Origin: a virus
Taxonomy: Duplodnaviria > Heunggongvirae > Uroviricota > Caudoviricetes
Direction: 5' to 3' (one strand)
IMG/VR virus record: IMGVR_UViG_2651869781_000017
Location: 1 to 51,682 of that record
Length of the DNA stretch: 51,682 nt
Shown: piece by piece, positions 1,369 to 45,499 of the stretch
Layout: every line of letters begins with the position of its first letter
Position numbering within the stretch: the stretch's first letter is position 1
The notes under the pieces: generated by a model
Databases searched by the model: none
What the model was told of the DNA's origin: nothing
Seen by the model: only the letters and a program-made list of their open reading frames with translations
Made by a program: the position numbers and the translations under genes

Positions 1369-1444
1369 GCCGATATAGCTCAGTTGGTAGAGCAGCGCAT
1401 TCGTAATGCGAAGGTCGGAGGTTCGACTCCTCTTATCGGCACCA
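1369..1444 (+). tRNA. thrW: tRNA-Thr (anticodon CGT)
   Basis: 76-nt sequence GCCGATATAGCTCAGTTGGTAGAGCAGCGCATTCGTAATGCG...GGCACCA with cloverleaf-compatible arms and CGT anticodon; immediately 3' of proA. Confidence 0.9.
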
Positions 1445-1458: not shown

Positions 1459-2619
1459 TTACCTAGTATTTAAGTAAATCACGTTCTCCTCTTGTGCCGT
1501 ATTTGTGCCATTGCGACTTATAATCGCATCGATTTTGCTCGCGTGCTCGGTGAGATGCCCGGCTGAAAGGTGGGCGTATCTTTGAACCATTTCGAGAGTT
1601 TCCCATCCTCCCATCTCTTTAAGTGCAAGAAGAGAGACACCGGACTGAACCAGCCAGCTTGCCCAAGTATGCCTCAGGTCATGGAAGCGGAAGTTGCTAA
1701 TGCCTGCCCGCTTTAACGCTCCCTTCCATGCCTTGTTGCTGTCGGTTCTCATCTTCCTTACCGCTGCTGTTTTTGTTCCGTCGCTTCGGTAGGCAGGTTT
1801 GGTGTGGACAAACACCCATCTCTTATGGAGACCCTGCTGTTTTCTTAATATCTGGCATGCGGTTTCGTTAAGAGGAACTCCGATCGCATTGCCAGCTTTT
1901 GTTTCATCAGGGTGCATCCATGCCATTTTCTTATCCAGATCGACCTGTGACCACTCAAGGTCTGTAACGTTGGAACGGCGAAGGCCTGTCGTGATTGCAA
2001 ACATGACCACAGGGAAGAAATGAGGAGCAATTTCTGCAAACAGGCGCTTCGATTCCTCCTCTGTAAGCCATCTGATTCGTCCATTCTTAACGCGTGGTGT
2101 TGATATTTTTGGCGCCCTGTCAAGCCATCCCCATTCAACAGCCATATTGAGAATAGCGCGAAGTATTGCCAGATGCCGCGTCTTCGTTCCTTTGCTTGCC
2201 AGCTTTGGTTTATACTCCGGCACTGGCTTGCCAAGCCGCAAACACCTGTCCCGGCTCATCTCCCAGTTCAGGCGATGGCGGCGGTTTTCCATCCCGTCTA
2301 CCGCCTCCATTATTTTTTCTGTTGTTATGTCAGAGAGAATGGCTTCTCTGAAGTGCAACATCCAGAACGATATAATGCTCTTGTCATCATCAATGGACTT
2401 CTTATCCGATTTCTCACGCAGCCACCGTATGCAGGCTTCCTTGAATAGCTTTTTCGGTGATTCCCCGAGATTTTTTACTCTCCACGCTTCTGCTTTCAGA
2501 CGATCGTGAAGTTCTTGCGCTTGCCTTTTGTCCGATGTTTCAAGAGAGCGTCTAACTCTTGATCCATCTGGCGCGACGAAATCGCAGTGCCACGTGCCAC
2601 CGCGTAGTTTGATTGACAT
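1459..2619 (-). CDS. int: tyrosine integrase (P22/lambda Int family)
   Basis: 386 aa; N-terminus and C-terminal HDLRHTWAS...RYAHL motifs typical of lambdoid integrases; GGAGG RBS before ATG; adjacent to tRNA att site. Confidence 0.9.
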   Translation of the reverse strand: MSIKLRGGTWHCDFVAPDGSRVRRSLETSDKRQAQELHDRLKAEAWRVKNLGESPKKLFKEACIRWLREKSDKKSIDDDKSIISFWMLHFREAILSDITTEKIMEAVDGMENRRHRLNWEMSRDRCLRLGKPVPEYKPKLASKGTKTRHLAILRAILNMAVEWGWLDRAPKISTPRVKNGRIRWLTEEESKRLFAEIAPHFFPVVMFAITTGLRRSNVTDLEWSQVDLDKKMAWMHPDETKAGNAIGVPLNETACQILRKQQGLHKRWVFVHTKPAYRSDGTKTAAVRKMRTDSNKAWKGALKRAGISNFRFHDLRHTWASWLVQSGVSLLALKEMGGWETLEMVQRYAHLSAGHLTEHASKIDAIISRNGTNTAQEENVIYLNTR

Positions 2620-2930: not shown

Positions 2931-3275
2931 TTAGTCCTTGCGTAGCTCGCTGATTCTTCTGTAAGTCTCTGGTGCTTTGTTCCCGTACGTCTTCATTTCA
3001 GACTTCAACAGAGCAACGAGTGAATCCCATTCGTTGAGGATTCCTTTGAATGCCGGAACGCGCTTTGCAACCTTGTCGAATGAATCTCTGATTTCTGGAA
3101 TCTGCTCAACAAGTGCAACGCATCGCCGGAAATCGGCTGCGTCATGTGGAGCACCGAAGCTATGACCATAGATATTCTTTTTCAGTCCACATGCGATTGA
3201 GGCAAGAGTTGCGCTACTGATACCGACATCGCTAGTCGATTGCCATTTCAAAACCTTCATAGCCAAATCTGACAT
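2931..3275 (-). CDS. hypothetical protein (ea-region accessory)
   Basis: ORF with GGAGA RBS before the internal ATG (MSDLAMKVLK...); longer ORF reaches 3302. Confidence 0.4.
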   Translation of the reverse strand: MSDLAMKVLKWQSTSDVGISSATLASIACGLKKNIYGHSFGAPHDAADFRRCVALVEQIPEIRDSFDKVAKRVPAFKGILNEWDSLVALLKSEMKTYGNKAPETYRRISELRKD

Positions 3276-3301
3276 TTCTTGTCTCCAATAAAAAACCGCC
3301 A

Positions 3302-3469
3302 TCAGGCGGCTTGGTGTTCTTTCAGTTCTTCAATTCGAATATTGGTTATGTCTGCATGTGCTATCTGCGCCCATATTATCCAGTGGTCATAGCAGTCGTT
3401 GATGTTCTCTGTTTCGATAACCCTGTTGAATGGCTCTCCATTCCATTCTCCTGTGACTCGGAAGTGCAT
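3302..3469 (-). CDS. hypothetical small protein (55 aa)
   Basis: ORF MHFRVTGEWNGEPF... with GGAGA RBS; abuts the neighbouring ORF. Confidence 0.3.
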   Translation of the reverse strand: MHFRVTGEWNGEPFNRVIETENINDCYDHWIIWAQIAHADITNIRIEELKEHQAA

Positions 3470-3549
3470 TTATCATCTCCATAAAACAAAACTCGCCGTA
3501 GCGAGTTCAGATAAAAGAAATCCATCAATTGGTTAGGGTTTTTGTAATT

Positions 3550-3741
3550 CTACGAATTATGTTGTTTTTTAGCTTCAGCTTTCCATTCATCAAAGGCAGT
3601 GTCTTTGTTCATGGTGCTGATATTGATCTTACGGTCAATATCATATACACGCCACTCACCGTTAGGCCTCTCTTCGCATCTAACTAAGTATGAATTGCCA
3701 TTAATATCTATGCGTCTGTCTATTTGCATGAACATTTTCAA
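3550..3741 (-). CDS. hypothetical small protein (63 aa)
   Basis: ORF in co-oriented early-left operon; AT-rich. Confidence 0.3.
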   Translation of the reverse strand: MKMFMQIDRRIDINGNSYLVRCEERPNGEWRVYDIDRKINISTMNKDTAFDEWKAEAKKQHNS

Positions 3742-3852
3742 TTTTCGAATCCTCTTTAATATGCATTTTTTGCTATTTCAGTAGTTTACTATTGATGAGT
3801 CGTTATTATACACACTTCATTAATGCAAGCATCTTTATGCTATGCTACTAAT

Positions 3853-4134
3853 TTAGCAATTGATATTCACCTTTATCGCGTATACCTTTACCGGTTTATC
3901 ACCGAAGTGGGGGTGTGTGATTGTTTTCACTTCATATCCTCCATACGGAACGTTAATTCTGCGGCTGGAATCGTCGCGCTTCGGATATCCCTTTGTGATA
4001 ATCAGGCGGTCATACTTACGATTAACGAGGCGTTTATTCCAGTAGTCATTGCACAGGCGATACTCTTCCGTTTTCTCTCCACGAATTATGGCATCGAAGT
4101 ATTCACCTTTAACGGCTAGTTGCAGGTTAGCCAC
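3853..4134 (-). CDS. ASCH/DUF3850-like small protein
   Basis: 93 aa; N-terminal LQLAVKGEYFDAIIRGEKTEEYR pattern resembles ASCH-fold proteins. Confidence 0.4.
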   Translation of the reverse strand: MANLQLAVKGEYFDAIIRGEKTEEYRLCNDYWNKRLVNRKYDRLIITKGYPKRDDSSRRINVPYGGYEVKTITHPHFGDKPVKVYAIKVNINC

Positions 4135-4996
4135 GGTTAACCTCCTGCGGAGGTTCCGGTAGCGGCATCCAATTGATTACATCGCATTCAGGGATGCTGA
4201 TATCATCACCAAGCCACCCTTGACCTTCAGACCAGCATTGCACGTAATACCCGTATTTTGTGTTCACTACGCACCACTGCGCGTCGTTCGGCGTCCGCTC
4301 ACTACAGCTTATCCAACCATCCGGAGTTACCGGAACTTGCGGAATGGCTGTCTGCTCTCGAACGTCATTAGGCGCTATAGGTTCTGCTGCCAACTGACTG
4401 GCATATTTGTTAATGGTAACGATAAGCTCTTGCTCAGCCTCATCCAGACAATCACCGATACCTCGCCTGTCACCGTCAAAATCATCGAAATCGGCACGAA
4501 TCTTGGCAACCTTCTGGATTGCGGACAACACCTCACTAGGAATTACCGGATAGTTGGTTGACGTTTCCGCGATTTCCCGAAAATTATTGGTTGACGAATT
4601 CTTGTTTTCCCGAAAGTTTCCGGACTGAAGCATGGCGGCGCGGCAGGCGTTCCAGCCTCTCACCTCTGCAATAGCGGCAACAGCATCAACCGCGTACATG
4701 CTAAGAGGATTAGGCATTGGTTTTTCTTCCGGTACTACTGGAACGGGTGGAGCGGCGTAGACCTCAATAATTCCATTATCAATAGGCCATTCTCCATCCT
4801 TGAGGTAGTCACTTGTGCCGTCAACTTGCTGTTCTGCAATGTGGAATGCACCTATTGGTTTTGCTTCCAGCGATGCCAGAGCAATTCGTGCCAGTTCTTC
4901 CGCTTCTTCTGCTGGCAGTACAACGTTGCTACCAGGTCCGTATGTTTCGCGCCACTGTTTGATTGTCAGCAGTCGCTCTTTGGTAATAGTGGTCAT
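4127..4996 (-). CDS. hypothetical protein with C-terminal DUF551-like domain
   Basis: 289 aa; C-terminal DGWISCSERTPND...WMPLPEPP resembles the DUF551 domain common in enterobacterial prophage ea regions. Confidence 0.45.
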   Translation of the reverse strand: MTTITKERLLTIKQWRETYGPGSNVVLPAEEAEELARIALASLEAKPIGAFHIAEQQVDGTSDYLKDGEWPIDNGIIEVYAAPPVPVVPEEKPMPNPLSMYAVDAVAAIAEVRGWNACRAAMLQSGNFRENKNSSTNNFREIAETSTNYPVIPSEVLSAIQKVAKIRADFDDFDGDRRGIGDCLDEAEQELIVTINKYASQLAAEPIAPNDVREQTAIPQVPVTPDGWISCSERTPNDAQWCVVNTKYGYYVQCWSEGQGWLGDDISIPECDVINWMPLPEPPQEVNRG

Positions 4997-4999
4997 GTG

Positions 5000-5149
5000 T
5001 TAGTCCTCTGTAGCAGGTGATACGCCGTAGTTGCATTCTTCATAGAATATGTCTCTGCCTATTTCTTCGGCATCCTCTGGCGTGTCTGCTTCAAACTCAA
5101 CAACCTTGCAATCATTAAATCCTTCGATAGTCACGATGTACTTAGCCAT
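5000..5149 (-). CDS. hypothetical small protein (49 aa)
   Basis: Short ORF tightly packed between flanking genes (4-bp and 2-bp gaps). Confidence 0.25.
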   Translation of the reverse strand: MAKYIVTIEGFNDCKVVEFEADTPEDAEEIGRDIFYEECNYGVSPATED

Positions 5150-5150
5150 A

Positions 5151-5885
5151 TCACTCTCCTTTGATGCGAATGTCAGCGTCAGACATCATATGCAGATACT
5201 CAACTGCATCCTGAACCCATTGACCGCCAATCCCGTAATAGCGATGCGTAATGATGTCGATAGTTACTAACGGGTCTTGTTCGATTAACTTCCGCAGAAA
5301 CTCTTCCAGGTCACCAGTGCAGTGCTTGATGACAGGAGTTTTCCCAGGATGGCGAACAACAAGAAACTGATTTCCGACTTCACGGACTTCGTTGCTTTCC
5401 AGTTCTGCAATGCGCTTCTCTGCGGATTCCAACGCCGCAACCAATTCGTCTACAGTTCCGGCAGCTTGCAGTGCGTAATCGGTAATAGCCATCTCATGAT
5501 CAATTTCAGTACCGTTCTCATTCGTTGAGGTGATAGCAAAATAATCAGAGTCGATTTCGTTATCAGCTAAGTGGCGTAGCGTATCGGCAACAAGCCGGCC
5601 GTTTTCGATTAGCAGCTCCCCTACCGTAAGCGCAATATCCTCGTTCTCCTGGTCGCGGAGTTTTATGTATTGCTGGTTTCTTTCCCGTTCATCCAGCAGC
5701 GCCAGCACGGTTTCTGGTCCGGTCAGAAATTTGAAGGCGTTGAGCGCATCAATATCCACACCGTAATCTTTAAGTTCCTGTTCAGTTAACAAATCATCAT
5801 CAGCTGACAACATTAACAGGCGTTCCATTGCTGGAATTGCACGTTCCGCCGCCTCACGCAGTGCCTGGTAATTAATTTCGCTCAC
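5151..5885 (-). CDS. hypothetical acidic protein (244 aa)
   Basis: ORF in early-left operon; start overlaps upstream gene stop. Confidence 0.45.
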   Translation of the reverse strand: MSEINYQALREAAERAIPAMERLLMLSADDDLLTEQELKDYGVDIDALNAFKFLTGPETVLALLDERERNQQYIKLRDQENEDIALTVGELLIENGRLVADTLRHLADNEIDSDYFAITSTNENGTEIDHEMAITDYALQAAGTVDELVAALESAEKRIAELESNEVREVGNQFLVVRHPGKTPVIKHCTGDLEEFLRKLIEQDPLVTIDIITHRYYGIGGQWVQDAVEYLHMMSDADIRIKGE

Positions 5886-6313
5886 TGGTTGCCTCCTTTG
5901 CGAAGCTGGGCAGCAAAGTCACGGATAGTGTCATCAAGGTCTGGGCACAACAGATGGTCAGCAAACATCTCCACGCCCTGCGCACGTACTTCAGCCAGGA
6001 AAGCATCGGTGGCTGGGGTGTTAAGTGAAAAGTCCTGTCGGCCTGATTTCAGATACGCAATGGCGATCTTTGTTGCTGCACATTCGACAGCGAATTTCTC
6101 TTTTTCAGCAGCCAGCGCCGCGCACTTTGCTTCAAGGTTATCAATCGTGATTCCAGCAGAACGGCACTCCCGCAACGCCGTTTCCAGTTTTGATTCAAGT
6201 TCACCGAACTTACGGACAAGATATTCAGCGTTTGTTTCGTTAACCTTTAAATCTCGTGGGATGCATTTACCTTTCAGAAATCCATCCATCTCAATTAGTG
6301 AGATTTGTTTCAT
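5882..6313 (-). CDS. hypothetical coiled-coil protein (143 aa)
   Basis: ORF with ATGA overlap to the upstream small ORF. Confidence 0.4.
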
Positions 6314-6474
6314 TTCTTCCCACTCCGCAACATCGCATTCAGATATTTGTTTTGATTAACTGATGGAAAAGAATTTCTCTTAAGCAATTCCTCTCTCGAT
6401 GGCATTGGCTTTACGCGTTGGCGAATAATCATTTCTGCCGGAAGAATGCCGGGATTGTATGCAAGTCCTCTCAT
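6310..6474 (-). CDS. hypothetical small protein (54 aa)
   Basis: Short ORF with ATGA-type overlap to downstream gene. Confidence 0.25.
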
Positions 6475-6490
6475 GATTAATTCCTCTTTG

Positions 6491-6805
6491 TTAATTTATT
6501 CGTATGCCTGCTCTTTCTTCATCGAGTTTTTTTAGCTTGTATCTCATAGCCCTTACTGAATAAATTGAGCGGCAGGTTGCAATTGCTATTTCTTCTGCGG
6601 AGAACTTACCGAAAAGTGATACTTCGGCTCTTGTCCAGCGTCTTCCGCGAAGTCGGCTAACAATGTCAGCGCCAATCCTTGTTGCTTTCGCCATTACTGC
6701 TTTTTCAGTCCTTTCCAGTTTTTCAGCGATAACTTCAACTGGCATTGTCGCCGCTACTTCGCGCAAGAAATCGACTTCCCATTTCTCCCATGGAGTCTTT
6801 TTCAT
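6491..6805 (-). CDS. hypothetical protein (104 aa)
   Basis: ORF in recombination-module neighbourhood. Confidence 0.4.
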
Positions 6806-6816
6806 AGGCGATACCG

Positions 6817-7299
6817 TTATTTGATAAGAAGTGAAGGTTTCCCAACCTTGAGTTGAGCGCCGGGGATATTTATTCCTGCTTTTAGTTGGTGCTTGATTGC
6901 CAACTTGTCGGCTTTAATTGTCGTTTCAAACTCAACGTATTCAGGAGGAATGGCGCTTGAGTCGATGATTTCTACAGTTTCTAACGGTTTGCGGATTGTT
7001 ACCTGGTGAATACCTGCTCGAATCTTTTTCTTGCCAACCATTTCAAGCGATGACGCTATATATGATTTGATGCTGTCAATTTTATTTTGAATTACTGCTG
7101 CTCGTTCATTCAGTGACTTTGCCTCTTCCTTGAGGCGTTCAGCATAACCAGATTCATTTTTAATGACGGAAAGAAGTTGCTCTATTTTATCGGTAAATTC
7201 TCCTTCCATGCCTTCTATTGTGTCAGCAATCATCTCTGGTTCTAAATCTGAATCCATCAATTTTGCGTATTCATTGGCAATTTCATACAGTTTGCTCAC
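6817..7299 (-). CDS. Gp157-like protein (recombination-module accessory); probable GTG start
   Basis: About 160 aa helical protein immediately downstream of RecT; GGAGG RBS before GTG at 7299. Confidence 0.4.
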   Translation of the reverse strand: MSKLYEIANEYAKLMDSDLEPEMIADTIEGMEGEFTDKIEQLLSVIKNESGYAERLKEEAKSLNERAAVIQNKIDSIKSYIASSLEMVGKKKIRAGIHQVTIRKPLETVEIIDSSAIPPEYVEFETTIKADKLAIKHQLKAGINIPGAQLKVGKPSLLIK

Positions 7300-8194
7300 T
7301 GGCAACCTCCAGTTTCGCTTTGCATTCTGCATAAATGGCTTGTACGTTCTGCTGCAATTTCATCCCAGATGTCAGGCGATATGCTTCTGCAAAATATCGC
7401 TTCAAATCATCCATGTTTTCAGCCTGAGCCATTTCATCACAAAGAAGTTGTGCTTTATCCGTTATTTCCTGCTGGCGTTTCCGTTCATCTTCGCGGATAT
7501 CTTCCTCTGATTTGTGCGGCATAACTGGTTCAGTCCACACACCTTCTTCTTCGTTTAGTACGTGAATAGCACTATCAAGACGTGATGCCTTAGGCCAATA
7601 CTTGCTTGCACGCTTTACGACCGTCTTTCGCGCCATCTCATTCCAGTGATTTACCCATGGTCCTTTATCGCTGAATGCCGCCTTGCTTGTTTTCCTTACA
7701 GCCTCAATTTCAGCCAGACTCATCTCTTCCGTTAGATAATCACCTGCTGGCGTCTTAACTGTGCAGTAAACGCCAACGATATCACCACGATCACCGAAGG
7801 CGTTGTATTTATGGGTTGGTGCTTTATCAAGCCCGTTTGACTCATAGGTATCGTTAGCATGAACAAGTTTTGCCTGACCCCATGAGATAACACCAGACTC
7901 CATTGCAATATGGAGCAATCCCATATAGCTGATATCAAGGCAAACCATGCCGTCGCGAGGAACCAGATAAGCCAGTTTGCTGGCAGGGTTTAAGGTGATG
8001 CCGATCGCCGCAACATTGATGATGGCGTTCTGTGCGCTGGTTGGATTTGCCAGTGCCGTTTTAGCCAGGTAATCATTTTTCTGGAAATACTGAATTGCAA
8101 ACTGGCTTTCCTTAGCCCATGTCACCGTCTGTTCAGTCAATGCTCCGCAGAATAACTGCTCTTGCTGTTTAACGAATTCAACGATATTGCTCAT
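7283..8194 (-). CDS. recT: RecT-family single-strand annealing recombinase
   Basis: 303 aa; conserved RecT core (AIINVAAIGITLNPASKLAYLVPRDG...) and acidic C-terminus. Confidence 0.8.
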   Translation of the reverse strand: MSNIVEFVKQQEQLFCGALTEQTVTWAKESQFAIQYFQKNDYLAKTALANPTSAQNAIINVAAIGITLNPASKLAYLVPRDGMVCLDISYMGLLHIAMESGVISWGQAKLVHANDTYESNGLDKAPTHKYNAFGDRGDIVGVYCTVKTPAGDYLTEEMSLAEIEAVRKTSKAAFSDKGPWVNHWNEMARKTVVKRASKYWPKASRLDSAIHVLNEEEGVWTEPVMPHKSEEDIREDERKRQQEITDKAQLLCDEMAQAENMDDLKRYFAEAYRLTSGMKLQQNVQAIYAECKAKLEVASEQTV

Positions 8195-8502
8195 GCAGCT
8201 TCTCCATAAATATGTCTGCGTTTGAATATTGCGAAGGCATATTCAGCCTTAACTCTTTCGGTTATTGCATCCCAGAACCATTCAGCGGCTTTTTCCTGAT
8301 AGTTACAGTCATCATCTTCCAGCCAGTCGATAGCGTCCTTAGTGTGTTCATCTGGTTTATATGAGCGAAGCATTTCGCTTATTGGGTCGCAACGTTTGCA
8401 GAGGCGATCAACTTCACTGTTGATTCGTTCGTAATCTTCATCAGTAAAGCTTGCGATTATTTGCGATATTTCACGCTTATCATTCAGAGTCAGAATCATC
8501 AT
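8191..8502 (-). CDS. hypothetical protein (103 aa) in lambda gam-equivalent position
   Basis: ORF directly upstream of recT; function not recognisable from sequence. Confidence 0.4.
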   Translation of the reverse strand: MMILTLNDKREISQIIASFTDEDYERINSEVDRLCKRCDPISEMLRSYKPDEHTKDAIDWLEDDDCNYQEKAAEWFWDAITERVKAEYAFAIFKRRHIYGEAA

Positions 8503-8583
8503 CTTTCTCCTGTTCTTTGTGCTGATTGAGCATTTTGTTCATCTGACGAATGAATTCTTCGTCTGACCAGTTATCTGTAAAAC

Positions 8584-8736
8584 TCATTTCCTGCGATACC
8601 ACGGAAGGTTGATAGCTGATTTCATCGCTTTATTTGCTTCAAGCCACATTTTGGAATCACCAATAAATCTGGCTATTACTGCTTTGTTCTGTGCAGCACG
8701 AAGCATCTGGTGATTGATGGCTATTTCATTGCGCAT
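8584..8736 (-). CDS. small protein in kil-equivalent position (50 aa)
   Basis: Short ORF overlapping cIII 3' end; assignment by position only. Confidence 0.3.
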   Translation of the reverse strand: MRNEIAINHQMLRAAQNKAVIARFIGDSKMWLEANKAMKSAINLPWYRRK

Positions 8737-8852
8737 AATAAGACCTCAACTCTTTTCCATCCGTCACGTAATTTACGGGTGATTCGTTCAAGTAAAGATT
8801 CATTTAATTGGAAGGCACCCATGCGAGCGCCTCCCGCGATTGCGTAAATCAT
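8721..8852 (-). CDS. cIII: CIII-like protease inhibitor (43 aa)
   Basis: Translation MIYAIAGGARMGAFQLNESLLERITRKLRDGWKR... closely matches lambda CIII core (ESLLERITRKLRDGWKRL). Confidence 0.7.
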   Translation of the reverse strand: MIYAIAGGARMGAFQLNESLLERITRKLRDGWKRVEVLLCAMK

Positions 8853-8876
8853 GGGTGGTTCCTTATGTTGGTTTTA

Positions 8877-9845
8877 TTAGTAGGTTATTTTTGTTGCGAA
8901 TACTTCGCCTTTTACGATGGCTGTTATGATATTTTTAGCAACATCTTCTGATGCGCCAACCTTGATAAGGTCAGCAAGTATTTTGTTATTTACTTCTTTC
9001 CGGTGAGCTTTATCCTTTGCTCTACGCTCTTCTTCTTCCTTGATTCTTTTTTCTTCTGCTATTCTGGCTTGCTCTTTTGCTTCAGCCTCGCGCAGGATTC
9101 GTTCTGCCTCCTCCTGTGCTTTACGGCGTTCTGCTTCAATTGCCGCATGCTTTTCTCTTTCAGCTCGTTCTGCTGCCTCTTTTGCTTCGCGCTGTGCTCG
9201 TTGCTCGGCTTCAATGCGTTCACGCTCTGCACGTTCCGCTGCGGCCTTAGCTTCTGCTTCTCGCCTTGCTGCTGCTTCAATTTCGGCTTTTGCCTTTGCT
9301 TCGGCTTCAGCTCTGGCTTTCTCTTCAGCTTCTCTTTTTAAGCGTTCTTCATGCTCTCGCTTTTCCTGCTCAGCTTTGAGTCTTGCCTCTTCTCTTTGGC
9401 GGTCAAATTCGCGATCCATCAAAATCGCTATTTCATGGTCAGACTCAATTTGCTTTGCGAGAGCTTCAGCTGCTGCCTTAGCTTCTTCTTCGGCTTTAAT
9501 CCGCGCCTGTTCTTCCTCATAATCAGTAAGAGGCTGGCGCGCCTTGGCTTTCAGTTCATCAAGGCGATCACGCACTGTCTTGCGGTTGGCATCAATTAGC
9601 TTTGGAATTTCCTTAAGTTCAGCAACAAGGTCTTTGCCAAGACCATCGAGATATGTTTTCGTCTGCGCAACTTTATACGCCAGAGAAGCGATCTCCTTTC
9701 TGCCCTTTGCCGTTGTGATATCAGGCACAAAGGACATAACTTCACGTTCAACCTTTTGGAGAATTTCTTCAATCTGGTCGGCAGACTGAAATACAGTCAT
9801 TGCATTTGCTTTTTCAATAACAACTAAATCTGTTACTTCACTCAT
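8877..9845 (-). CDS. hypothetical protein with long EA/R/K-rich low-complexity coiled-coil region
   Basis: 322 aa; about 110 residues of AEAKAKAEIEAAARREAEAKAAAERAERER-type repeats; GGAGGA RBS. Confidence 0.5.
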   Translation of the reverse strand: MSEVTDLVVIEKANAMTVFQSADQIEEILQKVEREVMSFVPDITTAKGRKEIASLAYKVAQTKTYLDGLGKDLVAELKEIPKLIDANRKTVRDRLDELKAKARQPLTDYEEEQARIKAEEEAKAAAEALAKQIESDHEIAILMDREFDRQREEARLKAEQEKREHEERLKREAEEKARAEAEAKAKAEIEAAARREAEAKAAAERAERERIEAEQRAQREAKEAAERAEREKHAAIEAERRKAQEEAERILREAEAKEQARIAEEKRIKEEEERRAKDKAHRKEVNNKILADLIKVGASEDVAKNIITAIVKGEVFATKITY

Positions 9846-9857
9846 ATATCCTCCGTC

Positions 9858-9885
9858 AAAAAATTGCCCTCACATTGGAGGGCAA
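9858..9885 (-). terminator. intrinsic terminator within early-left operon
   Basis: Perfect 8-bp stem (TTGCCCTC/GAGGGCAA) with 6-nt loop followed by T6 on the minus strand, immediately upstream of the 8877-9845 RBS. Confidence 0.5.
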
Positions 9886-9976
9886 AGAAGATTTCCAATA
9901 ATCAGAACAAGTCGGCTCCTGTTTAGTTACGAGCGACATTGCTCACATAGCAGACTCGCAAATCTGCTATAGGCGC

Positions 9977-10138
9977 TTATTCGCATCGCATGACAACATC
10001 AAATTTTTCGAGATTACTTTGTCGCAACAATCCTTCTTCGACGCGGTCAGCTTTTCTATAATTATCAAATTCGAAATGTTTAATTACTTCTTTCGTTTCT
10101 CGCTCTATAACTTCAACGATGTATTTCTTATTCATCAT
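9977..10138 (-). CDS. hypothetical small protein (53 aa)
   Basis: ORF with ATGA overlap to the upstream gene stop. Confidence 0.3.
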   Translation of the reverse strand: MMNKKYIVEVIERETKEVIKHFEFDNYRKADRVEEGLLRQSNLEKFDVVMRCE

Positions 10139-10425
10139 TCTTCCCAAAGAGCTTTGCTGATTGCTGACTGTGCTTTCGATACTTCATCAGGATAATGGTC
10201 ATTCCAGTTTTGCTTGTATGCCTTGTTTAGCATCGCTTGCAGGGCATTTAAAAGGTCAGGTGCTGCCGCTATTAGATTGGCATCTTCAATGCATTGAACT
10301 TCCTCACAGATTGCAATATACGAACGCCAGCCTGCGCCATTTTCAAGTGAGTCTGCCTGGATGATTTTAATCTCATCGCCATCCATCATTATTTCCCACT
10401 TACCTTCGGTACCTTTAAATTCCAT
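10135..10425 (-). CDS. hypothetical protein (96 aa)
   Basis: ORF in pL operon. Confidence 0.4.
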   Translation of the reverse strand: MEFKGTEGKWEIMMDGDEIKIIQADSLENGAGWRSYIAICEEVQCIEDANLIAAAPDLLNALQAMLNKAYKQNWNDHYPDEVSKAQSAISKALWEE

Positions 10426-10464
10426 GTTAGCCTCTGTTGTTTATGCCAAAAATAAAGGCCACCA

Positions 10465-10716
10465 TCAGGCAGCCTTGTTGTAAATGTTGCAGGTATCAAG
10501 TAAGTAATTAGATGGAGCGCCATAAATTATGAATTCATCGTTTGTCGGGTCCATCTCCATCTCTTGGCCTATTGCCATTCTTGCGTCAGTGTCATCAGCG
10601 GCGAAGCATAAAACAGCCCACGCACCCATTGTTTTAAAAAGAACTGCAATTGGCTGTGGTTTTACTGAATTTGCGTTAGCGCGAAAATCACAAATCGCAC
10701 TTTCATGAAATTCCAT
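10465..10716 (-). CDS. hypothetical protein (83 aa)
   Basis: ORF in pL operon. Confidence 0.4.
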   Translation of the reverse strand: MEFHESAICDFRANANSVKPQPIAVLFKTMGAWAVLCFAADDTDARMAIGQEMEMDPTNDEFIIYGAPSNYLLDTCNIYNKAA

Positions 10717-10724
10717 ATCTCACC

Positions 10725-10889
10725 TCAAATAAGTGGTTTGCCGCGAAAATAAATACGTTCCCACCAAGTTCCGTATCTATCTATCCAGTTACACCAATCA
10801 TCGACACTCCATTTTGTTGTGTCGCATTTTGGCAATTGGCATGAATATCTACCTTCTTTGTAAAGTCGGCGTTTGACTTTCTTGAGCAT
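10725..10889 (-). CDS. hypothetical Cys-rich small protein (54 aa)
   Basis: ORF MLKKVKRRLYKEGRYSCQLPKCDTTKWSVDDWCNW... immediately downstream of N. Confidence 0.3.
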   Translation of the reverse strand: MLKKVKRRLYKEGRYSCQLPKCDTTKWSVDDWCNWIDRYGTWWERIYFRGKPLI

Positions 10890-10897
10890 GGCTCACC

Positions 10898-11203
10898 TCA
10901 ATCGTAATAAGCTGGAATTGATTTTCCGCGTCGCTTCTGGCGGCCTGAGCAGGTCACACCCATTTCACTGCGTGGCTTGCGGTAGTAAATACGGTTCTGT
11001 TTACGCTCAACTTCTTCTGCCTTCTTGCAGCGAAGGCTTCCTAGTGATGCTGCTTTGTCTGCTCTGACGCAACCAGAGAGCTTTAGCGCAATTTTTCGCG
11101 CCAGTCGCTGTTCTTGCATTGCCTGCTCACGTTGAGCCTGTCTGCGTGCTCTGCGGCGATTTCTGGCGTTATCGTCAGCCAGATATGTAATGACTACTGC
11201 CAT
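10898..11203 (-). CDS. N: antitermination protein N (P22 gene 24 equivalent)
   Basis: 101 aa; N-terminal arginine-rich motif; C-terminus ...GVTCSGRQKRRGKSIP matches lambda N ...GITCSGRQKIKGKSIP; GGAGG RBS. Confidence 0.85.
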   Translation of the reverse strand: MAVVITYLADDNARNRRRARRQAQREQAMQEQRLARKIALKLSGCVRADKAASLGSLRCKKAEEVERKQNRIYYRKPRSEMGVTCSGRQKRRGKSIPAYYD

Positions 11204-11956: not shown

Positions 11957-12673
11957 TCAAACCAGCCTTAGTTTTGTCTCAATTGCAACGCCTATAATCT
12001 TGCAGTTTCCATTGATTGGCACGAGAGGCCATGCAGGGTTAAGTCCCTTGAGGTATTTATTTCCGCCGTCGATTATCAGCTTCTTGAATGTTGCTTCGTT
12101 AGAGTCAGAAAGTTTTGCTATGACCAAGCTGCCGTTGATCGCCTCCCTTCCGGTATCGAAAAGAACGAATGTTCCCTCTGGAATGCTTAACCCAACCGGT
12201 GCCGTCATTGAATCACCTTCCACTTTAAGCCAGAACGCATTACCTTGAATATGCGCGTCAGACTCAAGCCAAACATCTATGTCTTTAATGGTGTATGGTT
12301 CGCATGCTTCACACCACGAGCCAGCCTGGATACTGCTTAACACCGGATACCTCTTTCCTGCTCTGTATTCCCCTGCATACCTTACGTTGGCATCGCTCTT
12401 AAGGCTTTCTGCCTGTTCTGCAACCTTGGCAGCAATTGACTGGCTAAAATCAGCAATTGAGACTTGCAACAGTCGTGCAAAACCAGATGCAACCTCAACG
12501 TTTAGCGCGTTTCTGCCATTAAGATAATGCCCTACCGCTCCTTGGGTGATACCCAGTTCATCAGCGATTGAGTATTGGGTTATTCCCAATTCTTTCTTTT
12601 TTGACTCATACAAAGCCTTAAGCCGCTTAGCGTCTTCGAGCTGTTCTGTCGTCAGTGATTTTTTATTTTCCAT
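11957..12673 (-). CDS. cI: CI-type prophage repressor (HTH_XRE plus S24 LexA-like peptidase domain)
   Basis: 238 aa; N-terminal HTH (QYSIADELGITQGAVGHYLNG) and C-terminal S24 self-cleavage domain; divergent from cro across operator region. Confidence 0.88.
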   Translation of the reverse strand: MENKKSLTTEQLEDAKRLKALYESKKKELGITQYSIADELGITQGAVGHYLNGRNALNVEVASGFARLLQVSIADFSQSIAAKVAEQAESLKSDANVRYAGEYRAGKRYPVLSSIQAGSWCEACEPYTIKDIDVWLESDAHIQGNAFWLKVEGDSMTAPVGLSIPEGTFVLFDTGREAINGSLVIAKLSDSNEATFKKLIIDGGNKYLKGLNPAWPLVPINGNCKIIGVAIETKLRLV

Positions 12674-13395: not shown

Positions 13396-14040
13396 ATGAC
13401 ATACGAAAATGACAAATTCCAGGTTCTGAAGAGCATGAAGGTGCCAGATGATTTTAAATCAAATGGCTTTGTTTATGTGCTTTCGAATGAGTGCATGCCA
13501 GGAATTTATAAGATTGGGATGACTAAGCATTCACCAGAAGTTAGGGCTAAAGAAATTTCAGCCTCTACTGGCGTTCCTAAGCCATTTAAGGTGATAGCAG
13601 CCTTTCATTCAAATAATCCCGCATCAGATGAAAAACTCATTCATAAAGCCTTTGCAAAAGAGAGGCTTAGTGATAATCGAGAGTTTTTCAAGCTTGAAGA
13701 TAATGATCTTTCTGAATCTCTAAATGAAATAAGGGCGCTGGTTGGCCCTGAAAGAAATGGCGAGACGGCAGAATACGCAATTTACGACTCATTCATTTCT
13801 TTTCGCCATGAAAATGAGCTTGATCTTAATGAGGAGCTTATAGAGCAAGGTCTGGGTAGTGTAGTTGGTCATCTTCCTGCGGTGAAAAATTTCCTTATTC
13901 GCGCCGGAATTGCTTACGCGAAGCAACTGATAAGCAAATATAACTCATCGATAGTTATTAATACAGATGGCAGTGTGGTGATGGTTAAGTCTCTTGAAGC
14001 CCAATGCTTTGATGCGGAGGTTGGAAATGAGCCTGGCTGA
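13396..14040 (+). CDS. T5orf172-domain (GIY-YIG-like) protein; moron between cII and O
   Basis: 214 aa; N-terminal GFVYVLSNECMPGIYKIGMTKHSPEVRAKEI...REFFKLE matches the T5orf172/GIY-YIG-like signature; AT-rich compared with flanking genes. Confidence 0.6.
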   Translation: MTYENDKFQVLKSMKVPDDFKSNGFVYVLSNECMPGIYKIGMTKHSPEVRAKEISASTGVPKPFKVIAAFHSNNPASDEKLIHKAFAKERLSDNREFFKLEDNDLSESLNEIRALVGPERNGETAEYAIYDSFISFRHENELDLNEELIEQGLGSVVGHLPAVKNFLIRAGIAYAKQLISKYNSSIVINTDGSVVMVKSLEAQCFDAEVGNEPG

Positions 14041-14893
14041 AGTATTTTACCTGCCGAAGAGTGAACCTGTTGAACAGGAGCGAAGAGTGGCTGATATCGA
14101 TGATGGTTACACCAGATTCGCTAACGAGCTGCTGGAAGCTATCGCAAGTGCCGATTTAACCGCTCGCCAGTTGAAAGTTATGCTGGCCTACGTCCGGAAA
14201 ACATATGGATTCAATAAGAAAACAGATCGAATAGCCGATGAGCAAATTGCTCAGTTAACAGGACTGTCAAGGCAGAATGTTAACAAGGCTAAAAAAGAAC
14301 TGATTTCAATGAATTGCCTGTTTATGGATGGAAATCAAATCGGTGTAAACAGTGAGGTATCTGCGTGGCAATTCAGCAAGTGTCTCCAAGTTAGCAACTT
14401 TGTCTCGAAGTTAGAGACAAAAAATGTCTCCAAATTAGAGACACTCAATGTCTCGAAGTTAGAGACACTCAATGTCTCGAAGTTAGAGACACACAAAAGA
14501 CATTCTTTAAAGACAAAAGAAAATATTAATAAACCCCCTATATCCCCCAAAAAAGTTTCTCAGAAGTTCGACCCGCTAGAAACAGAGTTGCCTGATTGGT
14601 TATCAGCAGAAACATGGTTCTCGTGGGTTACCTATCGCAAGGAGATAGGTAAGTCGATCAAGTCTAAGCAAAGTGTCACTCAGGCTATCAACGTTCTAAG
14701 CAGAAGTCTGGAGAAGGGATATACACCTGAAGAAATTATAAACCAGAGCATCGCCAGTGGTTGGCAGGGGATTTTTGAGCCCAAGACTCCAAAGGGGAAA
14801 TCTCAACCGAGGCCGCAGCATCGAGCTATGCAGGAAAACTTTGCCACTAAAGATTACGGACAAACTGAAATGCCTTCATGGGCGCAGGAGTGA
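14027..14893 (+). CDS. O: replication initiator O (lambda O-like)
   Basis: N-terminal domain resembles lambda O (ADIDDGYTRFANELLEA...RQLKVMLAYVRKTYG); ori iterons lie inside the gene, as in lambda. Confidence 0.8.
   Translation: MSLAEVFYLPKSEPVEQERRVADIDDGYTRFANELLEAIASADLTARQLKVMLAYVRKTYGFNKKTDRIADEQIAQLTGLSRQNVNKAKKELISMNCLFMDGNQIGVNSEVSAWQFSKCLQVSNFVSKLETKNVSKLETLNVSKLETLNVSKLETHKRHSLKTKENINKPPISPKKVSQKFDPLETELPDWLSAETWFSWVTYRKEIGKSIKSKQSVTQAINVLSRSLEKGYTPEEIINQSIASGWQGIFEPKTPKGKSQPRPQHRAMQENFATKDYGQTEMPSWAQE
14381..14560 (+). repeat. phage replication origin: five 22-24 bp iterons (TGTCTCGAAGTTAGAGACA...) plus A/T-rich tract inside O
   Basis: Five tandem iterons, each with internal GTCTC..GAGAC dyad, at 14381-14496, followed by an A-rich segment. 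Confidence 0.75.
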
Positions 14894-38949: not shown

Positions 38950-39049
38950 CAGATAACCAACGCAACGACCCAGCTTCGGCTGGGTTTTTTTATGCCCAAA
39001 ATTCACCGTAGCCATGCTGCGGCGATTCCTTGTATCTGGAGCAAATTAA

Positions 39050-41179
39050 ATGACAGATATCACCGCAAATGTTGTGGTAAGCATGCCTTCGCAACTCTTC
39101 ACTATGGCTCGTTCTTTTAAAGCCGTAGCTAATGGCAAAATTTATATCGGAAAAATTGACACTGACCCGGTAAATCCAGGAAACCAGATCCAGGTTTATG
39201 TGGAGAACGAAGATGGCTCTCATGTTCCTGTTTCGCAACCAATCATCATTAACGCTGCCGGATATCCGGTATATAACGGACAGATTGCCAAATTCGTTAC
39301 CGTGCAAGGCCATTCTATGGCTGTTTATGATGCATATGGTGCGCAGCAGTTTTATTTTCCTAATGTGTTGAAGTATGATCCTGATCAGTTTAGTTTGAAG
39401 CTATCCATGCCTGATGGGGCAGGTGAAATTGGATATCAATATAGAAATAATGTTACATCTTCTTACCGAAGAGTAAACGACAAGCTTGATGAGCATGTCA
39501 GTATTCTGGATTTTCATAGAAATGTTGATGGTGGGTTAATCCTTCCTGCACAGAATGTTGATAGTAGACCATTCTTTGAGCGAGCACTTGTATACATTGA
39601 ATCAATAGGCGGTGGCACTATTTATGTACCGGCTGGAAAATACTATTTAAATTCATACAGTGAAATAGGGATCATAGGCACTGTCTTTAATGCAATATTG
39701 CCACTTTGCGATAATGTTAAAATTTTATTGGATACAGCGGCAGAAATAGTTGTCGGTACTTTTTTTGATGACAAGCCTTTCCAGTTGTTTTTTGGTTCTT
39801 CGCCTTTGAAACCAAATCTTGTAGACGCTGTAAATAATGTTGTCATAGAAGGTGGTACAATTAGCTTTAGTGGTTATAGCAGTATGATGAGAACAGCACC
39901 ACTAAACAGAATTGCATTGCAGACAGGAAATATAGATAATCTTCGCATATCAAATGTTACCTTTCGTGATGGTGACTTAACAAACGCTTTAGCGATAGGA
40001 TACAAAAATCTAGGCAAATATGCAGTTGTTGAGAATTGCAACTTTATTGACCTTATTCAGAACGGAATGAATAACGATCATAGTAGTATCTACCTTAATG
40101 CGTCACACTCTACAATTAATAATTGCAACTTTATTTCCACGATAGATAAAGGAAGGAAGATCGCTTGTGCTGTTGAGTTGCATAAATCTTTCAATAGTTG
40201 GATTGGTGGTAATGTTGATGGCTATACACGTGGTGCTTTTATAAACGCTATTGATACTGAATCATCTCTTGTAGAAAACACCAGAATTGAATCAGTTACC
40301 GCTAGAATACTACACCAGTTTGTAGCGTACTCGTTCGGTTCTAATGGGGTTATAAGAAATAGTCTTGTTTCAGGAAATAATGTAACAACTCTTGCGAGAA
40401 GTTCATCCGATACAGATCCTTCAGAATTTGGACCTTGCAGTCTCTGCGGTTGGGTGTCATATGGTAGTTTTGCAAATGCAGAAGGCCTAAATATCGTAGT
40501 TGAAAATAATACATACATTGTTGATGAATCAGTACAAGATTCATATAGTTGCGTATTTTATGCAATCGCAAATGTTTCAGGTGTTACTGTTCGTAGAAAC
40601 AGTGTTGGAGCGAGAACTTTTTTCTACAACCCAACCCCATCACTAAATCTTTACAATTGCCATTTTTATGAAAACAGGTTTGAGGAATCGTATGTACAGA
40701 GCGGTTCAGAAAGATTTTTATATGATCTTAACTGTAATCGTATTTCTCAAAGCACTTTCGAAGCATTTGTTCCAATAAAAACAACTGCACTGACAGGAGT
40801 TATGAGGATTGACCCATCTACGCTCGGTCCGCAGAATCGTTTTGTTGTCGATACTCAGAATACAGATAATATTGAACACCCATTTATTACAAATTTGCCA
40901 GGTTTGCTCGGGCAGGATGGTACAACTTACTCATATCCGCAAAAATGCGATGTCAACATCGGAGTTGGTTCTACACCTGTCCTATCTGTGATAAGTCCGG
41001 AAATAAGCACTGTAGACAGAGGACAGATTCTTAACAACGCGAACCTTCCATCTGGTTATGTCGCTCCGTCGTCGTTAATGAAGTACGATTCTACGCTTAC
41101 AGGAGCTGGTGTCACAGTATCAGGGACGCCATCCGGTAATTATCATGACGTGAGGATTCTACTGATAAGAGAACGTTAG
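39050..41179 (+). CDS. tailspike protein (P22-type N-terminal head-binding domain plus distinct receptor-binding domain)
   Basis: N-terminal 110 aa [34 protein letters not shown]...VLKYDPDQ matches P22 gp9 head-binding domain; rest diverges. Confidence 0.88.
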
Positions 41180-41392
41180 ATAGGTCTTGCGCAGGGACGC
41201 GCAAATCATTCGGGATTGCAAGGCTTTGTGCTCTTCTGTTGATGTGTGTCTACATGTTTGAAGATCGTTGTGCCGTATTTGTGACATACACATGACAACA
41301 TCATGCATCAACTTTCTGTTTGTGCCATCAACTATAGCTTAGTGAATGCGGTTAATGCTTGCTAAAACAGATAGTTATGATTGGTGCTACAT

Positions 41393-41439
41393 ATTCGTAA
41401 TGCGAAGGTCGGAGGTTCGACTCCTCTTATCGGCACCAT
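41393..41439 (+). repeat. attR: duplicated 3' 47 bp of thrW
   Basis: Exact copy of 1399-1445; lacks the tRNA 5' half so it is not a functional tRNA. Confidence 0.85.
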
Positions 41440-42263
41440 CAAGAAAATCAATAACTTAGCTTAACTTCTCTAAGAAATTGTATCTTCTGTTATCACTTAC
41501 AAACGCCTATACGTTGTTATGGGCTTTTGGTAGTTTAACACGTATGGGCGAGTAGTTCCCAGGCTCAACCTCGTAACAAGTTCCTTTGAAGCTGGAAGAC
41601 GTGCCACCGTCTCTAAACCTTCTACCAAAACTCTTAGCAAGATGTTCCACACCTGGCGCGGTGTCCAATGATGCTACACGTCGTGAGACGTTGCAGAGGA
41701 TAAACAGGCTAAATGATGGGAAGAGTTTTAAGTGCAATAGTGGATTAAAGCCCACCTCTTCAAAACCTAACTTGATCGGGAAAGAATCAAGCTCTAGCAC
41801 GGTTTCGTCCACCGGAGTACAACGGGTGCCTGATAAGAGAAGAACTGCTAAGACTTCATAGCTTTTGTGAAAAAGCCCTTTTTAGTGGATACGCCTACGG
41901 CGCTTATTTTTTGGTATAACCATCAAAGGCGCTTTATGGCTCCTATTGTCTTGAAAATGTATCTTTACTTGTATTGTGTTTTATGCGTAGTCTCCCTGTG
42001 TAGTATGTAACTTGTTAATTTTCATATGAATACAGAGGCACACGATGAAAAACATTGCAGCTATCAAACGTAATAACCGCAAGATTCACGCTCGTAAGTT
42101 CCTGTCTACGCCAGAGGGAAAAGCCTGGCTAGAGCGTAAACAGCGAGAGAACGAAGAAAGAAAACTCCTTAGTGAGTTGAAATGGCTTAAGGATTGAATC
42201 ACCAGTAGGCGCATAACACATCCAGCGATCAAAGATGTGTTTATGCGCCTGATAGTGAAATTA

Positions 42264-42422
42264 TTAAAGTTTTTTAGTTAATGTAGCCATTGCATGAACG
42301 ATGATCGCTAGTGAATCGATTTTATCTCGAGGGGTAAAATAGATGAGGTATATGATGGTAACAATTACAGCTAAAGTAATTGTGGTTCTGCAGGTTTTTA
42401 AAATGGATGAGATAAAGCGCAT
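42264..42422 (-). CDS. small hydrophobic protein (52 aa)
   Basis: ORF with G-rich RBS; single hydrophobic helix (TITLAVIVTIIYLIYF). Confidence 0.3.
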   Translation of the reverse strand: MRFISSILKTCRTTITLAVIVTIIYLIYFTPRDKIDSLAIIVHAMATLTKKL

Positions 42423-42748
42423 AGATACCCCCTATTGATTTAACAATAGCAAAGTATCATTTATTTTTTATTGCACGCAACATGCAAATTTTCACATATA
42501 ATAGTTTACTATTCACTTTGTATGGTGTCAACAAGATGATGTGTTGTTTTGTTTGATTTGTTCAAGATAATGTTTCATTTTCTCATCTATATAACTTGTG
42601 TTTTAGATAATTTCACTAATTGTAAAAGTTACGTATTGCTTAATAGCTACCTTTTTATCTGAAATCGGCGCAGACGTGATCAATGTTTAACGCGAAGATC
42701 AGCGGCGTCAGGTCCACGCAGCGACAATTCTCAAATATCAAGGAGGCA

Positions 42749-43288
42749 TTACGCCTCCTCTTCTTCCTTCTTGATACGTTGCACCGTTGAAGGAGCAACA
42801 TTAAAGCTCTCGGCGGTTTTACGCACTGACAGGCCATCAGAAAGGGCTTTCTTTATACCTTCTCGATCCACTGCTTTTCCATTACCACGTTTTGTAGGAT
42901 TGACGGCTTGCGCTTCTCGTTTACGTTCTAACATCAGTTCACGTTCACACGTTGCAACTGCCGACAACATCGTAAGCATCATCTTTCCCATCGCGCTTGT
43001 AATGTCTGCAATGATTCCTTCTTTGTGAAATCGAACAATTACACCTCGATTATTAAGTTGTTCAACTAAAGCAAGGATGTCTAAGGTGTTACGTCCTAAA
43101 CGGTCGAGAGAGTGCACGTGTAAGGTGTCGCCTTCTCTCAGATAGGCTAAACACGCTTGTAAGCCTGGGCGGTTAGTGTCTTTACCAGACAGCTTATCTT
43201 CAAAGACTTTATCGAGAGTTACTCCTGCAAGCTGGCGATCAGTGTTCTGATCTACAGTGCTCACACGCTTATAACCGATATTGCTCAT
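42749..43288 (-). CDS. small serine recombinase (resolvase/invertase family)
   Basis: 179 aa; catalytic N-terminus GYKRVSTVDQNTDRQ, LDRLGRN motif, C-terminal HTH. Confidence 0.85.
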   Translation of the reverse strand: MSNIGYKRVSTVDQNTDRQLAGVTLDKVFEDKLSGKDTNRPGLQACLAYLREGDTLHVHSLDRLGRNTLDILALVEQLNNRGVIVRFHKEGIIADITSAMGKMMLTMLSAVATCERELMLERKREAQAVNPTKRGNGKAVDREGIKKALSDGLSVRKTAESFNVAPSTVQRIKKEEEEA

Positions 43289-43940: not shown

Positions 43941-44052
43941 GGTAGGTCACTGTGAACTAGGGGGGGTAGTTCACTATGAGCTAGGGGGGTAGTTCACTAT
44001 GAGCTAGGGGGTAGGTCACTGTGAACTAGGGGGTAGGTCACTGTGAACTACA
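43941..44052 (+). repeat. five tandem 22-24 bp iterons (GGTAGGTCACTGTGAACTAGGG family)
   Basis: Five direct repeats in two sequence variants, followed by an A/T-rich tract with a (TA)n run near 44100-44127. Confidence 0.8.
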
Positions 44053-45480: not shown

Positions 45481-45499
45481 AGAATAGAAGGAGAAAACT

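Follow-up and report, generated by a model that had tools for sequence, protein, structure and literature searches.

What takes the place of the exonuclease in a phage recombination module that encodes a RecT-family annealing protein beside no recognisable nuclease? The question is raised by a 51,682-nucleotide (nt) stretch of a Caudoviricetes virus (IMG/VR record IMGVR_UViG_2651869781_000017, positions 1 to 51,682; hereafter, the window), in which an earlier reading of the letters alone (the sequence-only reading) had singled out a recT gene. Our comparison of this locus with related phages suggests that the last ~78 residues of RecT are a putative docking domain specific for the Gp157-family protein encoded next to it, and that the 103-amino-acid (aa) open reading frame (ORF) preceding recT, here called X, may represent a family of the gam slot, the position between kil/cIII and the annealing protein. 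Both proposals, which go beyond the existing annotation of these genes, are offered as testable hypotheses. Family calls throughout the operon are based on Pfam and PHROG profile scans, and the genes in question are the following.

8191-8502, minus strand: ORF X, 103 aa; without a Pfam family; phrog_3486 (function unknown)
7283-8194, minus strand: RecT, 303 aa; PF03837, E 2.7e-32; phrog_148, E 1.8e-92
7544-8104, minus strand: RecT annealing core, aa 31-217; PF03837
7286-7519, minus strand: RecT C-terminal domain, aa ~226-303; compared by tblastn and with a hidden Markov model (HMM)
6817-7299, minus strand: Sipho_Gp157, 160 aa; PF05565, E 3.7e-38; phrog_253, E 5.6e-54

The RecT C-terminal domain and its neighbour Gp157

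RecT scores 112.4 bits against PF03837 (cutoff 24) over residues 31-217, which places it in the RecT/Redbeta family, and weakly matches the solved structure of Listeria RecT (7UB2, E 0.0046); on family membership, it is the single-strand annealing protein of the module. Its core is 52-77% identical to the cores of TL-2011c, Vibrio 1.236.O and PY100. In these phages and in ENT47670 (cores 50-77% identical), recT is followed by a gene for a lambda-Exo/YqaJ-type nuclease. The window has Gp157 in the place where these relatives have the exonuclease, and its membership of the Sipho_Gp157 family is clear (PF05565, 131.5 bits against a cutoff of 28.6, covering profile positions 1-162 of 162).

A C-terminal domain of the window type is found by tblastn in 24 of 50,697 phage records. 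A Sipho_Gp157 gene (160 aa) comes next in all eight divergent representatives that carry it: HK639, KO-TP1, Pantoea PA-1, Pseudomonas 15b, Aeromonas phiA005, 4_L372X, Louie and Pantoea PdC23. An HNH gene has been inserted between RecT and Gp157 in Louie, and in PdC23 the core that bears the domain is of the ERF family (PF04404, E 6e-44), with an HNH gene and then Gp157 behind it. The domain is likewise followed by Gp157 in mEpX1, HK140 and Kapi1. An HMM of the window-type domain matched no exonuclease-linked annealing protein at E ≤ 1 among the loci compared.

The C-terminal domain of lambda Bet docks lambda Exo (complex PDB 6M9K). Domains of this Bet type are carried by the RecT proteins of TL-2011c, ENT47670 and PY100 and of a metagenomic locus in which the downstream partner of RecT is cut off (L089); they share 41-55% identity with Bet residues ~140-261 (E 2e-22, 2e-35 and 1.6e-17). 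Bet-type domains on exonuclease-paired RecT proteins serve as a positive control for the idea that the domain tracks the partner. A direct kinship of the window domain with the Bet domain was considered and dropped, the two being unrelated in sequence. Across the ~14 lineages sampled, all six that have the window-type domain also have Gp157 downstream, against none of the eight that lack the domain (Fisher p = 3.3e-4). At the level of sequence, the C-terminal domain thus co-varies with the adjacent partner, as in the SynExo recombinases.

The breakpoints of homology point the same way. DNA homology of the window to HK639 and PA-1 is limited to positions 8196-6815, exactly RecT plus Gp157. In Salmonella phage SEN22, precisely 8190-6806 is replaced by a DUF3799 nuclease gene and a 189-aa gene, and the genes on either side are retained, namely X (97.7%) and the Abc1-like helix-turn-helix (HTH) gene (82%; in a separate comparison, 91% identical to its SEN22 counterpart). 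RecT and Gp157 thus move as an exact two-gene cassette and probably form a functional unit. The co-variation of domain and partner, together with these mosaic breakpoints, points to Gp157 as a probable docked partner of RecT, in the exonuclease slot.

Gp157 may alternatively be an independent, MuGam-type anti-RecBCD end protector unlinked to RecT. The RecT domain would then bind something else, for example the host single-stranded DNA-binding protein (SSB), and would travel with Gp157 merely through gene adjacency, and X would have an unrelated early function. RefSeq and PHROG label the pair 'RecT-like ssDNA annealing protein' and 'Mu Gam-like end protection', and the second label speaks for such a role, as do the counting of MuGam as the anti-RecBCD function of HK140 (PMC12315714), the binding of SSB by the lambda Bet C-terminal domain according to a report cited in that survey, and the position of Gp157 in Gram-positive phages upstream of erf or sak4, where it alternates with Mu gam (PMC8093625). 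We nevertheless regard this alternative as unlikely, if one to be taken seriously. In PdC23 the domain is joined to an ERF core that is unrelated to RecT, and Gp157 is there too, despite the HNH gene between them, and RecT cores 70-77% identical that are paired with exonucleases have a different C-terminal domain. Furthermore, in most RecT-Gp157 modules the gam slot is filled by a gene of its own, Gam, GamL or X, which would be redundant if Gp157 inhibited RecBCD. The presence of such a gene fits Gp157 as a recombination partner, without proving it.

Several points count against a docked, Mu-Gam-like Gp157. Since the window-type domain was itself the query that brought in the lineages carrying it, the comparison tests only whether the domain implies Gp157. 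Distant Gp157 proteins of Gram-positive phages (604 records), which lie beside other annealing proteins, fall outside it, and the co-inheritance of domain and Gp157 could reflect tight linkage alone. Structural comparison, too, does not confirm a kinship with Mu Gam. The AlphaFold2 monomer of Gp157 (predicted local distance difference test (pLDDT) 80, predicted template modelling score (pTM) 0.42) has a ~68-residue helix followed by a small beta-rich C-terminal domain. Foldseek found no Gam or Ku match to it in the PDB and none at E < 0.9, a weak test given that the model is an elongated monomer of a probable dimer. Aligned with hhalign, as single sequences and as small profiles, Gp157 and Mu Gam are collinear in their C-terminal halves, with a probability below 1% (0.8%); the Gp157 profiles used are shallow (number of effective sequences (Neff) ~1.7), being drawn from the closest 120 homologues.

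Other searches leave the relation to Mu Gam at the level of hints. Searches of PDB sequences with phmmer and hmmsearch gave nothing significant for Gp157, and the window copy does not match PF07352. Collinear, nearly full-length matches to PF07352 are present in 6 of 23 close Gp157 homologues and in the HK639 and PdC23 copies, all below threshold (E 0.0022 at best; 16-18 bits where the cutoff is 28.3). A further hint is the HTH gene of phrog_323, which adjoins gam in Mu (gp9) and Gp157 here. We therefore use 'Mu-Gam-like' for Gp157 as a published assignment, made for the MuGam type from AlphaFold3 folds (PMC12315714), that our own comparisons do not confirm. The sequence-only reading had recognised the Gp157-like protein and treated it as a bystander. 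Its presence holds; the bystander role is not supported. PHROGs and Zheng et al. class the family as MuGam-type end protection or anti-RecBCD, and our comparisons make Gp157 the probable partner of RecT.

A separate observation concerns the junction between the two genes. Three unrelated phages, Louie (L001, 4175-4642), PdC23 (L098, 2647-3111) and PY100 (L103, 3413-3901), each have an HNH endonuclease gene precisely at the boundary between the gene for the annealing protein and that for its partner, Gp157 or exonuclease. HNH genes thus seem to home preferentially to this junction.

ORF X and the gam slot

HMMER, run exhaustively against 1.84 billion representative proteins, finds only 54 representative clusters of the X family. 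Its members, nearly all 100-107 aa long, are acidic (median isoelectric point 4.65, n = 32) and end in a conserved E-(A/V)-A tail. The AlphaFold2 model of X (pLDDT 81) is all-helical, with five helices. In size and acidity X resembles GamS and GamL, which are likewise acidic proteins of ~100 aa.

X heads the recombination module in all 12 independent contexts recovered. The next gene encodes an annealing protein or a nuclease, except in phage 15b, where X lies ~1 kb upstream of RecT; wherever the upstream flank is visible, X directly follows cIII or kil. The modules behind it vary widely and include X-Bet-YqaJ, X-RecT-YqaJ (ENT47670), X-DUF3799-RecT, X-DUF3799 with a further gene of no recognised family, X-167-aa gene-YqaJ, X-Erf-HNH-Gp157 (PdC23) and X-RecT-Gp157 (PA-1 and the window). 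In Dewey the slot holds a lambda-type Gam, and its DNA homology to the window breaks at the RecT start codon; in HK639, KO-TP1 and TL-2011c the slot holds GamL. In no locus fetched does X occur together with Gam, GamL or Abc2.

X thus occupies the gam slot, in mutual exclusion with Gam and GamL. Because it exchanges with them there and does not co-occur with them, the most economical reading is that X is a host-nuclease inhibitor; its position makes it most likely an inhibitor or modulator of RecBCD. The sequence-only reading had put the 103-aa ORF in the gam-equivalent position, which the Gam of Dewey and the GamL of the three other phages bear out. It had also suggested an anti-RecBCD factor, and here the position agrees with the suggestion, whereas likeness to Gam, GamL or Abc2 was found neither by profile search, nor by hhalign, nor in the predicted fold.

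These comparisons are what speaks against X as a RecBCD inhibitor. The Gam and GamL inhibitor families are PF06064, phrog_259 and phrog_1050; X has no Pfam match to them, and hhalign gives probabilities of 0.8-3.8% with Gam, 0.2% with GamL and 0.7% with Abc2. Run as a control, phmmer recovers the link between GamL and Gam (E 6.5e-7). Foldseek found nothing for the X model at E < 3, and no Gam-like fold, in the PDB, which should include the Gam entries 2UUZ and 5MBV. A search of the window by tblastn with Abc2, the P22 protein that binds RecC and modifies RecBCD, reached E 3.1 at best. The Chi site (GCTGGTGG) occurs 0 times on either strand of the 51.7 kb, against ~1.2 expected, an absence that fits lambdoid phages with an anti-RecBCD function and is statistically uninformative; Chi-free genomes are typical of phages with an anti-RecBCD gene (PMC12315714).

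X was also considered as a diverged Gam. A collinear DDDxxYQE motif (tblastn E 0.025 within the window) is not significant, and profile-profile comparison, a profile search of the PDB and Foldseek gave nothing significant. A relationship to GamL or Abc2 was dropped after the negative hhalign results.

The ATGA overlap that couples X translationally to RecT, and the constant company of recombination genes, would also suit a dedicated RecT cofactor, that is, a mediator or chaperone such as P22 Arf for Erf or T4 UvsY, in place of a host-nuclease inhibitor. The sole fold matches to the X model are several non-significant ones to UvsY (E 3.6-8). The 96% identical copy in SEN22, however, precedes a DUF3799 nuclease in a module without RecT. 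Because that copy serves a RecT-free module, X is not specific to RecT. Other relatives of X precede Bet, Erf or proteins of no assigned family, which is too promiscuous for a partner-specific cofactor, and X exchanges with Gam or GamL at one shared boundary. We consider a cofactor role quite improbable and retain X as the probable inhibitor or modulator of RecBCD.

Two further observations attach to X. A public 125-aa protein (P0022) is a chimera, identical to X over residues 1-49 and Ead/Ea22-like at its C-terminus, which resembles the Ead/Ea22-like 143-aa ORF of the window (5882-6313); this implies a mosaic junction within X in some prophages. Downstream of X in other phages, proteins of 167-189 aa without a family (phrog_21613, phrog_11517) adjoin YqaJ or DUF3799 nucleases in the position of an annealing protein or SSB (L093, 723-1226; L096, 5139-5693; L108, 5130-5699), and they may be unrecognised annealing or single-stranded-DNA-binding proteins.

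A catalogued module type and its surroundings

The module as such is a known one. Zheng, Casjens, Davidson, Amundsen and Smith (Genome Res 2025) surveyed 325 lambdoid phages, found 84 of 246 lambdoid Rec modules to be without a nuclease, and catalogued HK140 as 'SAP-4', with no nuclease, no SSB, and MuGam; the shuffling of partner interaction domains was put outside the scope of their paper, and X and the Abc1-like gene were not counted as module members (PMC12315714). Steczkiewicz et al. (2021) described Gp157, Mu-gam-like, DUF1351 and DUF2483 genes that alternate beside nuclease-less erf and sak4, and an analogous function was inferred for these alternating genes (PMC8093625). A 4.1-kb region of the window is 96-98% identical to vB_EcoP-683R2, Louie, Kapi1, Gally, mEpX1, HK140 and Dewey, and the X-RecT-Gp157 block is covered to at least 80% in 264 of 5,426 complete E. 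coli genomes. The module is the nuclease-less 'HK140 type' of a lambdoid, P22-like E. coli prophage, already catalogued and common. Given both surveys, a RecT without an exonuclease is therefore not surprising.

The absence of an exonuclease itself is borne out by our searches. No YqaJ/lambda-Exo, RecE/ExoVIII, DUF3799 or other nuclease was found by Pfam or PHROG profiles in 20 further early-left ORFs (2931-11203), and tblastn of the window in its six reading frames with lambda Exo as query reached only E 0.27. The early-right operon encodes NinB/Orf, Dam, YbcO and RusA, and contains no 5'-3' exonuclease. The two-component SynExo arrangement, in which a cognate exonuclease gene adjoins the annealing-protein gene, is thus absent here. 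The sequence-only reading had described RecT as lacking a recognisable RecE/Exo partner, a statement that would have fallen had profile search shown a neighbouring ORF to be such a nuclease; none was so shown, and the statement stands. Its emphasis on the absence as noteworthy does not, since 84 of 246 lambdoid Rec modules share it and the HK140 type is catalogued.

Several early-left ORFs have no assigned function, and an exonuclease partner might in principle be hidden in one of them, such as Gp157 or a 322-aa coiled-coil protein encoded upstream of cIII. This is very improbable. No nuclease profile matches any of 30 ORFs, the models of Gp157 and X match no nuclease fold, the 322-aa protein has a homologue in a phage whose module is already equipped with a DUF3799 nuclease (L092), and the nuclease-less class, as counted in the lambdoid survey, is a common one.

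The 322-aa protein (8877-9845, minus strand; phrog_1376) merits description in its own right. It has a long coiled-coil centre rich in E, A, K and R, and is publicly annotated as 'TolA' or 'hypothetical'. Its homologue in L092, 48% identical, lies upstream of cIII in a phage with a DUF3799 plus RecT module. It was considered as a DUF1351-like recombination partner and set aside, as there is no Pfam support even at E ≤ 1 and the homologue keeps company with a nuclease-bearing module.

A module that sits in a prophage, and of which some public X copies are truncated or chimeric (P0003, P0022), might also be a decaying, functionless remnant of a defective element. There is very little to recommend this explanation, as all ORFs are intact with coupled starts, the same block is present in the plaque-forming phages mEpX1, HK140, Kapi1, Louie and Gally, and the block recurs in E. 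coli genomes at the frequency given above.

The surrounding genes place the module in a lambda-like early operon. The left end of the window carries proA (1-1254) and, directly downstream, the tRNA-Thr(CGT) gene thrW (1369-1444, plus strand). A P22-like integrase gene (1459-2619, minus strand) abuts thrW and an excisionase-like gene comes next; the thrW/int junction is the prophage attachment site and left boundary. N lies at 10898-11203, and a cI-like repressor gene (11957-12673, minus strand), cro and cII lie further right. Because of the positions of int, the excisionase-like gene, the cI-like gene, cro, cII and N, the minus-strand genes from N to int make up the early-left operon of a prophage that is lambdoid and has thrW as its integration site. 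The kil and cIII genes (8584-8852, minus strand) form the upstream flank and mark the lambda-like position of the module, whose remaining genes are the following.

8721-8852, minus strand: cIII; PF02061, E 4e-15
8584-8736, minus strand: Kil; PF06301, E 1.7e-20
8480-8602, minus strand: ORF of 35-40 aa between kil and X; phrog_17766, E 7.6e-16
6491-6805, minus strand: Abc1-like basic HTH protein, 104 aa; phrog_323, E 2.8e-20

RecT, cIII, the ORFs in the kil position, the 103-aa ORF and the Gp157-like protein all lie where the sequence-only reading had drawn them. As read directly from the sequence, the stop codon of X and the start codon of RecT overlap as ATGA, and Gp157 begins with GTG at 7299, seven bases past a GGAGG Shine-Dalgarno sequence; the 5' end of Gp157 overlaps the 3' end of RecT by 17 nt. 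No minus-strand terminator-like site was found between 9864 and 6000. Because of the overlapping junctions and the lack of such a site, the genes look like one translationally coupled unit.

The two small accessory genes are less easily placed. The 104-aa HTH ORF belongs to phrog_323, which also takes in P22 Abc1 (E 1.3e-23) and Mu gp9 (E 5.2e-29). By BLASTP it aligns with Mu gp9 (E 5e-5) and gives no alignment with P22 Abc1, so that the link to Abc1 is one of PHROG profiles only. The 35-40 aa ORF is present in 80 of 80 IMG/VR loci, lies inside the block shared with SEN22 and is co-inherited with X. It was compared with P22 Arf and rejected as a relative, Arf belonging to a different family (phrog_2445); the two share just an FSDEEFI-like motif (tblastn E 0.58).

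Elsewhere in the window, three features were recorded. A T5orf172/MUG113 (GIY-YIG-like) domain gene (13396-14040, plus strand) lies between cII and the replication O gene; it could be an insert related to defence or a mobile nuclease. The O-like replication protein (13994-14893, plus strand) contains a tandem peptide repeat, NVSKLETL, in four copies (DNA ~14400-14520), and the DNA repeats beneath these copies are probably origin iterons. The G+C content falls to 0.34-0.40 at 39000-50000, compared with ~0.50 in the structural genes, which suggests that this right-end region, with tail-fibre, host-range or moron genes, was acquired horizontally.

A proposed mechanism and known systems

The explanation that we favour, by a modest measure of confidence, is a nuclease-less Rec module in which RecT and Gp157 would form a docked unit, X would inhibit or modulate RecBCD and the Abc1-like protein would be an accessory. 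Gp157, a candidate Mu-Gam/Ku-like protein, would bind double-strand ends while tethered to RecT by the RecT C-terminal domain; it would shield the ends from RecBCD and load RecT there. Host enzymes would resect the 5' strands, or RecT would anneal strands at replication forks in the manner of P22. X, encoded in the gam slot and independent of the type of annealing protein, would neutralise RecBCD or modulate it, and the Abc1-like HTH protein would act as an accessory factor, like Abc1 in P22. Phage P22 recombines with Erf plus Abc proteins and no nuclease. We put forward only tentatively, and with rather more doubt than confidence, the stronger joint claim that Gp157 is a dedicated partner of annealing proteins, recruited through a portable domain of ~50-78 aa into a nuclease-free two-component recombinase, and that X is also an unrecognised type of gam-slot RecBCD inhibitor.

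If the RecT domain does dock Gp157, this would explain how annealing proteins that lack an exonuclease are targeted to DNA ends. An 'annealase plus end-binder' recombinase would then parallel Bet-Exo and RecT-RecE, and a practical rule for recombineering would follow, namely that an annealing protein should be transferred along with the partner and the C-terminal domain that match it. X, if an inhibitor of RecBCD, would extend the short list of inhibitors of this hub of bacterial immunity by a new family, one that neither in sequence nor, apparently, in fold is related to Gam, GamL, Abc2, gp5.9 and MuGam. RecBCD inhibitors are also what Old, retron Ec48 and other abortive-infection systems sense as triggers. 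It would then be necessary to reclassify several phages, SEN22 among them, that are scored as having no anti-RecBCD gene.

Among known systems, HK140 and mEpX1 are the closest, with the order X-RecT-Gp157-HTH, essentially identical genes and no substantial difference; in mEpX1, RecT residues 1-215 and X are 100% identical to those of the window. The arf-erf-abc1-abc2 region of P22 resembles the window as a nuclease-less set of an annealing protein and accessory or anti-RecBCD genes after c3-kil. It includes a phrog_323 gene (Abc1), and a homologue of P22 orf56, 77% identical, follows in the window. P22 differs in having Erf in place of RecT and in lacking Gp157 and X, and the window lacks Abc2. 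Mu Gam, a Ku-like end-binding protein, is similar to Gp157 in size and in the order of secondary structures; unlike Gp157, it is not attached to an annealing protein, and neither hhalign nor Foldseek confirms homology between the two. The erf-ssb/sak4 loci of Firmicutes phages also place Gp157 beside an annealing protein without a nuclease, although there Gp157 lies upstream of Erf or Sak4, whereas in the window it lies downstream of RecT and is tied to a specific C-terminal domain (PMC8093625).

Lambda Red (gam-bet-exo) differs from the window in its partner, an exonuclease where the window has Gp157, in a Bet C-terminal domain of unrelated sequence, and in a Gam to which X is not detectably homologous. 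The operon place, cIII-kil-slot-annealing protein-partner, is nonetheless the same, relatives of X occupy the gam slot of true Bet plus Exo modules, and in both systems the C-terminal domain of the annealing protein is modular and varies with the partner.

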